Sequence record: MZ436830.1
DNA from: Escherichia phage JK1
DNA length: 64,000 nt
Strand: one strand, 5' to 3'
Made by a program: the position numbers and the translations under genes. Shown here piece after piece: positions 17,798-23,520 of this stretch (position 1 is the stretch's first letter; every line of letters begins with the position of its first letter). The notes beneath the pieces were generated by a model that saw only the letters and a program-made list of their open reading frames with translations, had not been told where the DNA came from and searched no databases.

Positions 17798-17842
17798 ATT
17801 AACCTCTATTCATAAAAGCATTAAAAATTTGGTCATCAATAG
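17795..17842 (-). repeat. 48-bp direct repeat spanning a gene junction (copy 1)
   Basis: 45/48 identical to 18153-18200. Confidence 0.6.
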
Positions 17843-18155
17843 ATGGCGCAGTAATATTTTCTGCATCATTTAGCAAATCATTAATTTCATCAGATAGCAT
17901 AACACATGTACCTTTATTTCCTGTAATTGTTACTGCACAATTACGAACGTTTTCTTTATCAAATTTTAGGTTAATATTTTCGTAGTGAAAATCCTTTAAT
18001 GCCGAATATATCTTTAAAATGAAATTGTCTTTTACTACAATAAACCCAACCTCACTATTAAAACGCGGTTCATGGAAACTGTAATAAACCTTTTCATCTA
18101 TAAAATCGTATGAAATTTTTTCCATTTTTAAATATGAAAATTCAGAACTATACAT
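17799..18155 (-). CDS. hypothetical protein (C-terminal IDDQIFNAFMNRG tail)
   Basis: 118-aa ORF. Confidence 0.5.
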   Translation of the reverse strand: MYSSEFSYLKMEKISYDFIDEKVYYSFHEPRFNSEVGFIVVKDNFILKIYSALKDFHYENINLKFDKENVRNCAVTITGNKGTCVMLSDEINDLLNDAENITAPSIDDQIFNAFMNRG

Positions 18156-18200
18156 ATTAACCTTTATTCATAAAAGCATTAAAAATTTGATCGTCAATAG
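18153..18200 (-). repeat. 48-bp direct repeat spanning a gene junction (copy 2)
   Basis: 45/48 identical to 17795-17842. Confidence 0.6.
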
Positions 18201-18789
18201 AAACTTTTACTTTAGGCTGTTCTTCAAACGGTAATTCATATCCACATATTACAATTTTGTGATCGATACCAAAATACACAGAAGCAATATTATTAATATT
18301 ATTTTCAGTGAAATCTAAATCAACATCAATATCTTTTTGACTAACGCTCAAAGGATAATTAATACGAATAATTCGATTATCTTTAACAAAGATTCCACCG
18401 ACATACTCTGTGCTGCGTTTAAAGTTTACACGTTTCCTAAATGAAAAATATTCAGGTTCTTTATGGGCTCGACTCATAGGGCTTAAAGTGTATTCCGAAT
18501 ATGAAATATCAAATCCTACACCTTCAATATGAGCCAAAGTATCATGATTAAACCAATTATAATCGTATGCCAAATCCATTAAATTGTAATATGTGAAAGG
18601 CACCGGATTAACATCATATGTTGTACCTTTAAAATCTGCCCAGGCAACGATTTCGTTATCTTTAACAATTACAAAAATTGTGCCAATAAGATATCCACGG
18701 TTATTTTCATCAGGTGTTATATTATAACATTGTGCATCAGGAAATTTACCGTATTTAAACGGTGGATTTTTGTGCATATAATAAATCAT
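18157..18789 (-). CDS. hypothetical protein (C-terminal IDDQIFNAFMNKG tail)
   Basis: 210-aa ORF. Confidence 0.5.
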   Translation of the reverse strand: MIYYMHKNPPFKYGKFPDAQCYNITPDENNRGYLIGTIFVIVKDNEIVAWADFKGTTYDVNPVPFTYYNLMDLAYDYNWFNHDTLAHIEGVGFDISYSEYTLSPMSRAHKEPEYFSFRKRVNFKRSTEYVGGIFVKDNRIIRINYPLSVSQKDIDVDLDFTENNINNIASVYFGIDHKIVICGYELPFEEQPKVKVSIDDQIFNAFMNKG

Positions 18790-18790
18790 A

Positions 18791-19084
18791 TTATTCGCCT
18801 GTGATTTCGGTTACGATATTTTTGTTATTAAAGTTTTTATCGCAATACAGAACATAATTATACTGCATTACACCACCAGACTTAAGCTGTTTTTGCACTT
18901 CAGCTTTCATTTCAGGACGATCGCGCTCAACGATATTCATAATATCTGCTTCAATTTGAGTTTCAACTTCAGTCTGATCCGCAGTCATAGACCATTCACA
19001 CAAATCTTTATCATAACCTGCCATAGCAGGCTGAGCAGCACAAGAAGCTAAAGCAAAAATTGTAGCAAAGATAAATTTTTTCAT
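18791..19084 (-). CDS. secreted 97-aa protein (spackle/Sp-like by size, signal peptide and position)
   Basis: cleavable signal peptide ...AQPAMA; 97 aa. Confidence 0.5.
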   Translation of the reverse strand: MKKFIFATIFALASCAAQPAMAGYDKDLCEWSMTADQTEVETQIEADIMNIVERDRPEMKAEVQKQLKSGGVMQYNYVLYCDKNFNNKNIVTEITGE

Positions 19085-19144
19085 GATAATCTCCTCAGTA
19101 GTTTATGTTTATATAGTATCTCAATTTCCAACAAAAGTAAACAG

Positions 19145-19402
19145 TTATTTTAAAACTTCTGCGTAATCACATGTTACAAACTGTTTCTCTAGCTTAACGA
19201 TCTTACGAAAATACCTTTTACACTGACGAATCTGTCGCTTCGTAGGACGTACAGCAAACTTAATAAATTCCACTCGACCAAATGGAGGACTTTCTTCTGC
19301 TGGAATATCTAACACCAATTCCCATGTATCTGCAATAAGTGCTTTGAATTGCGTATTTTTCCTGACGTTATACGGAGTAGGTTTAAATAAAACAATATGC
19401 AT
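19145..19402 (-). CDS. hypothetical protein
   Basis: start trimmed to ATG with GAGGA SD. Confidence 0.45.
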   Translation of the reverse strand: MHIVLFKPTPYNVRKNTQFKALIADTWELVLDIPAEESPPFGRVEFIKFAVRPTKRQIRQCKRYFRKIVKLEKQFVTCDYAEVLK

Positions 19403-19403
19403 A

Positions 19404-19586
19404 TTATCCTCGGCAATCCACTTCACATACTTTCTTGTCATCAATGAAAGCTTTAACTAATGCTTTATTAACTTCAGCATACTGAGTAGTAGCCCATTGA
19501 ACGTCATCTTTCATCATTGTGGTTTCTTTAGTAAACATGCTTTCATTCTTAAACCACCCCATAAAAACTACCTTTACCAATTCCAT
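19404..19586 (-). CDS. dmd: Dmd-like antitoxin (discriminator of mRNA degradation)
   Basis: 60-aa ORF immediately downstream of gene 41 with its own early promoter; sequence matches my recollection of Dmd. Confidence 0.6.
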   Translation of the reverse strand: MELVKVVFMGWFKNESMFTKETTMMKDDVQWATTQYAEVNKALVKAFIDDKKVCEVDCRG

Positions 19587-19615
19587 AACAATCTCCTCAT
19601 TTAACCAACAAGACT

Positions 19616-19645
19616 ACTATACCATAGTCTCGTCAGCTTGTAAAC
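19616..19645 (-). promoter_or_regulatory. early promoter upstream of dmd
   Basis: GTTTAC-N18-TGGTATAGT. Confidence 0.55.
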
Positions 19646-21072
19646 TAAAATTTTAATTCATTCGCCAAAGCATCTAACTGAGCTCGAGTGGATTCATTTC
19701 TTTGATAGCGATTCTGCTCAGCCTGAATCTGTTGTGAACCTGCTACTTCACTCACTTCAGTTGGAGTAGAATCTTGTTCGATTTCTACCCATTTCTGATT
19801 TCCCTTTTGAACACCCATCAAAAACTTATTCCATTTATTTTTATCACCATATCGTGATTTGATTTGCTTAATGAGTTGTTGTTCAGCAGCTGCTAACTCC
19901 TCGGTTTCAATGACCGCAAGCATAAAATCGGCTGTTGCTGGAAGACCGGCAGATTCTGCAATATCGCTCATGTTAACATCGGAAGAGTCCCAAGCTTGTT
20001 TACCAACCTGTGCTGCAGTCCAAAGAACAGTTTCGGTTTCAACAGCAAGAGCACGCAATTCCTCTGCAATAGCTTTAACAGTTGTGTAACTATTTTCTGA
20101 ATAAACTCTAATGCGGCAAGATTTACAAATACCCAGATAGTCGACAATAATGATTGTTGGAACAAAATTCTTCTTAAGCTTCAATTCGTTTAAAAGTGAT
20201 CGAAATGTATTAGCATCTGCTCCACCAGTAGGATACTGTTTAACGATTAAACGACCGAGAGTAGATTTCTCGCGCCATTTTTCCATTTTTCCTTTATACT
20301 CAGCGTAAGAAATATGCCCATCATCAATGTCATCAAGAGAAACATCAAGCATATTAGCATCAATACGTTTAGCACAGACTTCTTCTGCCATTTCCATGGA
20401 AATGTAAAGAACATTATGTCCGAGCTGTAAATAATCTGCTGCTAATGAACACAATCCTAATGACTTACCAACGTTAACGCCAGCCATTAAAACGTTCAGT
20501 GTTCCAGTCTCAGCTCCGCCTTTAGTAATTTTATTTAGAATTCTGAGTTTAAATGGAACTTTACGAGCTTTATTCATATAAGATAGCCAGCGTGCTTCGT
20601 AGTCATCCATCCAATCATGACCAACGTAGCTATCAAATGAAATTGATAATGCTTGGCGCATGATGTCAGGAATAGCACCAACATCCGGCATTTTCTTATT
20701 TCGTTTTTCCGGAGGAAGCTCAGCATTAGTTTGAATTTCGATTATTTTAGACGTAGCATTAAACATCGCCCTTTGCTGAACATATTTTTCTGTTTCTTTT
20801 ACTAACCAGCTGTGGTCTTCTGGAGAATCAGCCAGTTTTGAAATAAGTGTTTTTACACCAGAATATTCTGTTTCAGTAAATGAACTATTTTCTAATGCAA
20901 CATTTAACGCATTAATAGATGGAACGCTATGGTACTCATTAACATGAGATTTAATTAATTTGAATGTATTTTTAGCTGGACCACTTTCAAAATATTCTGA
21001 ATCCATATATGGCCAAACTTTTGAAAAATAAGCTTGATCAAATATAAGATGAGAAAGAATAATTTCTACCAC
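19645..21072 (-). CDS. 41: replicative DNA helicase (DnaB-like)
   Basis: 475 aa; Walker A GVNVGKS. Confidence 0.9.
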   Translation of the reverse strand: MVEIILSHLIFDQAYFSKVWPYMDSEYFESGPAKNTFKLIKSHVNEYHSVPSINALNVALENSSFTETEYSGVKTLISKLADSPEDHSWLVKETEKYVQQRAMFNATSKIIEIQTNAELPPEKRNKKMPDVGAIPDIMRQALSISFDSYVGHDWMDDYEARWLSYMNKARKVPFKLRILNKITKGGAETGTLNVLMAGVNVGKSLGLCSLAADYLQLGHNVLYISMEMAEEVCAKRIDANMLDVSLDDIDDGHISYAEYKGKMEKWREKSTLGRLIVKQYPTGGADANTFRSLLNELKLKKNFVPTIIIVDYLGICKSCRIRVYSENSYTTVKAIAEELRALAVETETVLWTAAQVGKQAWDSSDVNMSDIAESAGLPATADFMLAVIETEELAAAEQQLIKQIKSRYGDKNKWNKFLMGVQKGNQKWVEIEQDSTPTEVSEVAGSQQIQAEQNRYQRNESTRAQLDALANELKF

Positions 21073-22594: not shown

Positions 22595-22671
22595 TCATTT
22601 TTTCCATAGGCATCATTATATTTTCCTCACTGGTTAAAGATAGAGTAATTATAACACAATAAATTTAGGCA

Positions 22672-23520
22672 TTAATCAACTGCTATTGGATGAATAGCAT
22701 TAAACTTATGAAATGCTTCTGATTTTTCTTTACGAGAAACACACATGCGAAGAACCTTTAATGGCTCGTCTTCTTCACCCAACGATTTTCGTTTTTCAAT
22801 ATTAGAAGTTTTCCAACGAGCTTGCTCTGGAAACTCTCTATTGATTTGCTCAAGCGCTCTATTATGTTTAGAATTACTACGAATTGAACTGCACCCGCCA
22901 GGAGCTTGTGCTTTTCCAGATACAACCAGATATTTGAACAAGGCCAAATGCGGATAACCTTGATTAATTAAATTGAGAAATGCATACATATCTTCGCACA
23001 AATCAATTTTTCCATACCCAATTTGTTCTGTCGTAAGTTTTCCGAGGTCATACCATGTATTCGTGAATCCATATGAATTTTCACGATAATTACCCCAAGA
23101 TGAAGTAATTTTAAAAATAGGTAGACGAGCATGACCGTGATAATACCCGCAATCCATGGCATCTTCAACGTATTGAATCAATTCATAGAACTGTTCACGG
23201 GTTAATTGATTGACTTTATCTACACAACGACGGTCATCTCTTTTTCGCATTGAACTCATACGAATAGTAGTATCATCGTCAATCATCCAGATTCGTTGAC
23301 CTGCATACATATCAGTAATTGCTTTACGAGTACCGGCAATTCCGTTTACATCATCAGGAATAGTTATAATTTTAGCTCTAGACCCATAGGCATCATAATA
23401 AGCTTTTTCTTCATGTTCACGCACTACAATATGGGGTTCATAATCAGTCGGAAACATATCAAGGGCAGAAACTGCCCCGACACGCTGATAACTTGGAATT
23501 ACGAATTGAATCATTTCCAC
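22672..23520 (-). CDS. GT-A fold glycosyltransferase (DxD), probable HMC-DNA glucosyltransferase at the beta-gt locus
   Basis: 282 aa; IWMIDDDTTI DxD motif; between uvsX and 42. Confidence 0.55.
   Translation of the reverse strand: MEMIQFVIPSYQRVGAVSALDMFPTDYEPHIVVREHEEKAYYDAYGSRAKIITIPDDVNGIAGTRKAITDMYAGQRIWMIDDDTTIRMSSMRKRDDRRCVDKVNQLTREQFYELIQYVEDAMDCGYYHGHARLPIFKITSSWGNYRENSYGFTNTWYDLGKLTTEQIGYGKIDLCEDMYAFLNLINQGYPHLALFKYLVVSGKAQAPGGCSSIRSNSKHNRALEQINREFPEQARWKTSNIEKRKSLGEEDEPLKVLRMCVSRKEKSEAFHKFNAIHPIAVD

Follow-up and report, generated by a model that had tools for sequence, protein, structure and literature searches.

The open reading frame at positions 19404-19586 of the window, the 64,000-nucleotide stretch of Escherichia phage JK1 DNA (sequence record MZ436830.1) analyzed here, is almost certainly the T4-type dmd gene (gene 61.5) of a Tequatrovirus, forming together with tifA (gene 61.4) a short early transcription unit. 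The gene lies on the minus strand, as do all the features described below, and runs from an ATG at 19586 to a TAA stop at 19406-19404, encoding a protein of 60 residues with the sequence MELVKVVFMGWFKNESMFTKETTMMKDDVQWATTQYAEVNKALVKAFIDDKKVCEVDCRG. Those attributes of the Dmd family that are open to sequence testing are all present, namely a full-length profile match, identity to the T4 protein, the invariant residues and the genomic position.

Identity of the Dmd protein and its natural variation

The initial annotation took this frame for a Dmd-like antitoxin and named low identity to T4 Dmd as the outcome that would speak against it. The alignment, now performed, gave 59 identical residues out of 60 with T4 Dmd (PDB 5HY3 chain B, 'Antitoxin Dmd'; E 9.6e-37 by phmmer against PDB sequences), the sole difference being I22T, and the same search retrieved the second Dmd structure, 5I8J, at 2.9e-17. 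The Pfam Dmd profile (PF17587) was matched at 153.5 bits against a cut-off of 27 bits, with residues 1-60 falling on profile positions 1-60 of 60, and PHROG 2102 matched with an E value of 5e-39. Using tblastn we found Dmd homologues in 800 phage records, with identities down to 45%; 99 of these records are at least 99% identical to the window protein (RB33, for instance, at 100%) and a further 378 lie between 95 and 99%. Hundreds of Tequatrovirus records label the same gene dmd, and the proposed identity is supported.

With only 60 residues, and given that short open frames are common in A/T-rich phage DNA, the frame could conceivably be a chance one or the unexpressed remnant of a decayed gene. 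The start and stop codons are intact, however, and are preceded by a strong ribosome-binding site, while the full-length PF17587 match, the near-identity to a crystallized protein and the matches in 800 phage records reaching down to 45% identity make the probability of such an origin negligible. The profile, 5HY3 and tblastn matches effectively refute it.

To place the single substitution we considered an alignment of eight Dmd sequences, including those of T4, RB6 and Dhakavirus, Mosigvirus and Krischvirus phages, which are 45-98% identical to the window protein. The window Dmd retains every one of the 19 invariant columns, W31, Q35 and AEVN37-40 among them, whereas column 22 varies (I/T/R) and carries threonine also in Dhakavirus LHE83. 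The T22 allele is likewise present in RB33 and in other records at 99% identity or above. Since column 22 is variable and the 19 invariant columns are preserved, T22 is, judging from the alignment, a common natural variant and no lesion.

A functional effect of I22T was nevertheless weighed, in the form of either a weakened activity or an altered specificity within the RnlA/LsoA family, tuned to other toxins. T4 Dmd differs from the window protein at position 22 alone, the family alignment is variable around that position, and neighboring anti-TA proteins such as TifA have been reported to be 'tuned' between phages (PMC9391042). The change is, however, a single one in a non-conserved column, matches at or above 99% identity occur in 99 records, classical E. 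coli phages such as RB33 included, and nothing in the data indicates a change of specificity. We therefore consider a functional difference from T4 Dmd very unlikely, and there is just a slim chance that threonine at position 22, as compared with isoleucine, alters the range of RnlA/LsoA-family HEPN toxins that are inhibited. Should that be so, the locus, with its diverged adfA and an additional adfA-like half-gene (described below), would represent the T4 anti-TA island with a different tuning.

An early promoter in the spacer between gene 41 and dmd

As the initial annotation had it, dmd directly follows gene 41: the gene starts 58 nt past a 475-residue open reading frame at 19645-21072 (TAG stop at 19647-19645), which T4 annotation and synteny identify as the replicative helicase gene 41. 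The gap has the same length in T4, and the 3' end of gene 41 is near-identical to its T4 counterpart.

Within this spacer lies a T4-type early (sigma-70) promoter at 19645-19616, an assignment that the sequence supports on several counts. Its 30 nucleotides, GTTTACAAGCTGACGAGACTATGGTATAGT, comprise a -35 element GTTTACA (19645-19639, GTTTAC occupying 19645-19640), an extended -10 element TGG (19624-19622) and a -10 hexamer TATAGT (19621-19616); the initial G of GTTTAC doubles as the final base of the TAG that ends gene 41. In the sigma-70 register, the consensus scan reads the site as TTTACA-17-TATAGT with an extended -10 TG and 10 matches out of 12, and inspection reveals an A/T-rich, UP-like stretch, AATTAAAATTTTA, immediately 5' of GTTTAC. 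These elements reproduce the UP/-35/TGn/-10 architecture of T4 early promoters (Hinton, PMC2988021). From the promoter geometry we infer that transcription would start at about 19609, leaving dmd with a leader of roughly 23 nt.

The 64-kb window contains 15 copies of the motif GTTTAC-N14-16-TGNTANNNT, every one on the minus strand, where the early genes lie, as compared with an expectation of 0.14 copies and a maximum of 2 in 100 dinucleotide shuffles. Several copies resemble each other beyond the hexamers: GTTTACAAGCTGA is found at both 11695 and 19645, and GTTTACTTTNCCACAAGGATGTGGTATAAT at both 2458 and 47361.

The same 30-nt motif stands at an equal distance from dmd in T4 and RB6, with identical hexamers, TGn and spacing. 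Conservation of the gene 41-dmd spacer across the window, T4 and RB6 reaches about 97%, although the RB6 Dmd protein is just 68% identical to that of the window; promoter function is supported because, in the comparison with RB6, the non-coding signal is better conserved than the adjacent coding sequence.

The T4 records NC_000866 and AF158101 contain CDS features only, and no annotated promoter was found in them, but the literature on T4 describes one. With reference to Liebig and Ruger (1989) and to Miller et al. (2003), Srikant, Guegler and Laub (2022, PMC9391042) place dmd (61.5) and 61.4 in a two-gene operon under an early T4 promoter; according to PMC3014915, Dmd is made early and binds RnlA, and proteomics lists it among the early proteins (PMC9697503). 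By analogy with this T4 counterpart, the JK1 promoter would be active right after infection, without phage protein synthesis.

The initial annotation had thus rightly seen an early promoter just 5' of dmd, a reading borne out by the T4 early architecture, the excess of motif copies, the hexamers shared with T4 and RB6 and the published operon, and the coordinates it gave, 19616-19645 (30 nt), are exact. Its formula GTTTAC-N18-TGGTATAGT needs amending: 18 nt do separate GTTTAC from TATAGT, but the distance from GTTTAC to TGGTATAGT, that is, to the TGn plus -10 segment at 19624-19616, is 15 nt.

Ribosome-binding site and leader of dmd

A Shine-Dalgarno sequence, GAGGAG, is located at 19598-19593, 6 nt 5' of the dmd ATG, and is identical in T4. 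Folding of the dmd leader gave no stable structure that would sequester this site, the result being no better than that of shuffled sequences (z = 0.02). A structured RNA around dmd was also considered and rejected, as a scan of 18700-19900 with Rfam at E<=1 returned just two sub-threshold matches, both to eukaryotic lncRNA models and attributable to chance.

GGAG in early mRNAs is the motif cut by the T4 endoribonuclease RegB, and the leader sequence suggests that RegB could shut down dmd translation once the early period ends. GGAG is present in the Shine-Dalgarno sequences of dmd (GAGGAG, at 19593-19596) and of the downstream gene sp (TGAGGAG, at about 19092-19095), while that of tifA, GAGGAT, is without it.

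The dmd-tifA transcription unit and its genomic context

Immediately downstream of dmd is gene 61.4, or tifA (19145-19402), encoding a protein of 85 residues that is identical to T4 gp61.4 at 84 of them and matches Pfam DUF7279 at 72.7 bits; the function of TifA as an inhibitor of ToxN was described by Srikant et al. (2022, PMC9391042). The tifA ATG (19402) lies 1 nt past the dmd stop codon, and its Shine-Dalgarno sequence, GAGGA, is contained within the 3' end of dmd. A mechanical list of open reading frames starts tifA at a TTG at 19444 (99 aa), but the T4 start corresponds to the ATG at 19402 and the TTG is probably not the real start. Because the tifA ATG follows the dmd stop after a single nucleotide, the promoter serves the two-gene unit dmd-tifA. 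Hence the early promoter that had been described as dmd's own is indeed present, but it is not dedicated to dmd alone.

The minus-strand gene order uvsX-40-41-dmd-61.4(tifA)-sp is that of T4, as seen by comparing the map of open reading frames with the annotations of T4, PhiZZ30 and RB6, and the window represents a typical Tequatrovirus genome. Many T4-like coliphages are 95-97% identical to it over 18 kb around dmd, and PhiZZ30 and the slur phages reach 99.5-99.7% identity over the 601 nt surrounding the gene. Against T4, 5 of 341 aligned nucleotide positions differ in a segment that runs from the 3' end of gene 41 through the intergenic region and dmd into the start of 61.4.

A terminator scan found no terminator-like site on the minus strand between gene 41 and dmd, nor any terminator or attenuator between tifA and sp, where folding of the spacer was also no better than that of shuffles. 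A discrete terminator closing the dmd-tifA unit was accordingly rejected, there being no minus-strand site and no fold better than shuffles. Given that no terminator-like element was found at either junction, read-through into dmd, and from tifA into sp, is plausible as an addition to promoter-driven expression.

The lack of such a site between gene 41 and dmd is also compatible with a stronger proposal, in which dmd mRNA would come chiefly from uvsX-40-41 read-through and the GTTTAC/TATAGT site would contribute little, and extension of upstream transcripts is common in T4 middle-mode expression (PMC2988021). We regard this as highly improbable. The site possesses every element of a T4 early promoter and is one of the strand-specific copies whose number so far exceeds expectation, RB6 has the same bases there despite a diverged coding sequence, and the literature puts dmd-61.4 under an early promoter (PMC9391042) and the Dmd protein among the early products (PMC3014915, PMC9697503). 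Read-through may therefore supplement expression from the promoter at 19645-19616, but is unlikely to replace it.

The gene sp (spackle; 18791-19084) is located downstream of tifA, and the 60-nt spacer between the two contains a second GTTTAC-type promoter-like site, GTTTAC-N18-TACTAT, at 19142-19113, without a TGn in register. The consensus scan missed this site, each of whose hexamers scores 4/6. A 'promoter downstream of tifA' is mentioned in PMC9391042, to which the site at 19142-19113 probably corresponds.

Variable loci in the neighborhood

Further downstream, the window carries two adfA-like genes in tandem. The first (18157-18789) encodes a 210-residue homologue of T4 gp61.2/AdfA (PHROG 3781) that is 73% identical to the T4 protein, whereas the genes flanking it are 98-99% identical to T4. 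The second (17799-18155) encodes a half-length paralogue of 118 residues (PHROG 4122), which shows 37% identity over about 100 residues to the C-terminal half of the 210-residue protein; the C-termini of both share the tail SIDDQIFNAFMN(K/R)G. Among the genomes compared, T4 has the long form only, PhiZZ30 the short form only and the window both. Judging from these sequences, the adfA pair looks like a variable slot of the published anti-TA island, more variable than dmd-tifA.

Another difference from T4 is found upstream, after uvsX. In T4, uvsX is followed by the homing endonuclease gene segA; the window has no segA at 22595-23520, and the next open reading frame after uvsX (22672-23520) encodes a 282-residue beta-glucosyl-HMC-alpha-glucosyltransferase of the T2/T6 type (PHROG 842), standing where T4 has segA and beta-gt.

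Proposed mechanism and significance

The functional assignment of the JK1 protein, that is, toxin binding, plating phenotype and early timing, follows from its 59/60 identity to the T4 protein that has been characterized for these properties. Binding and inhibition of RnlA and LsoA, and the need for the gene for growth on rnlAB+ or lsoAB+ hosts, are accordingly transferred from the T4 literature, and the timing, toxin binding and phenotype are to be understood for JK1 as expected by this analogy.

On the T4 model, unmodified host sigma-70 RNA polymerase would fire at the 19645-19616 promoter immediately after infection and transcribe dmd-tifA, and the strong GAGGAG site in the leader would allow Dmd to be made within the first minutes. 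Shut-off of host expression by the phage would meanwhile lead to the loss of the labile antitoxins RnlB and LsoB and so set free the HEPN endoribonucleases RnlA and LsoA, a sequence of events from shut-off through antitoxin decay to toxin release that is described in PMC5308261. Dmd would then bind RnlA or LsoA directly, in the groove between the N-repeated/TBP2 and HEPN domains and beside the catalytic Arg/Glu, and this binding would spare the phage middle and late mRNAs from cleavage. PMC8266594 documents that Dmd occupies this groove, with NRD/TBP2 on one side and HEPN on the other. In the same work, Garcia-Rodriguez et al. (2021) raise the question of whether RnlA truly has its active site in the groove bound by Dmd, and the mode of inhibition is debated there between a block of the active site and interference with the active, canonical HEPN dimer.

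The dmd gene, its mechanism, structure and early promoter have already been described for T4, and the locus adds no new biology in this respect. The value of the result lies in the correct annotation, according to which the phage carries the standard counter-defense against the RnlAB and LsoAB toxin-antitoxin systems. The combination of dmd, tifA and an adfA homologue is the known 'anti-TA island' of T4, and its recognition is useful for host-range prediction, for example of phage-therapy candidates.

Comparison with known systems

The closest relative of the system is that of T4 itself, whose Dmd (gene 61.5; 5HY3 chain B; PF17587) is likewise a 60-residue protein encoded between genes 41 and 61.4, and differs from the JK1 protein in having I22 in place of T22 at a family-variable position. 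The upstream spacers are similarly close, both being 58 nt long and differing at 2 positions, with identical promoter hexamers and Shine-Dalgarno sequence. At the level of the island, the window shares with the T4 dmd-tifA operon (PMC9391042) both genes, the 1-nt gap between them, the upstream early promoter, a TifA identical at 84 of 85 residues and a nearby 61.2/adfA homologue; it departs from T4 in that this homologue is 73% identical and in that it holds the extra 118-residue, half-size paralogue, which T4 is without.

More distant members of the family comprise the 64-residue Dmd of PDB 5I8J and the Dmd proteins of Mosigvirus, Dhakavirus and Krischvirus phages. These have in common with the JK1 protein the invariant residues K5, F8, G10, F18, W31, Q35 and AEVN37-40 and a C-terminal D-x-R, but are 45-68% identical to it, carry 1-3 inserted residues after position 25 and are extended at the N- or C-terminus. 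The dmd gene of the Mosigvirus and Dhakavirus records, unlike that of the window, is abutted on its upstream side by another open reading frame, and no early-promoter motif was found immediately 5' of it within the flanks retrieved.

By homology to T4 Dmd, the JK1 protein would finally resemble the host antitoxins RnlB and LsoB of the type II toxin-antitoxin systems in being a direct protein inhibitor of RnlA and LsoA. Dmd differs from these antitoxins in showing no sequence similarity to RnlB or LsoB (PMC7180214), in being encoded by a phage with no toxin gene linked to it, and in that one protein inhibits both toxins.
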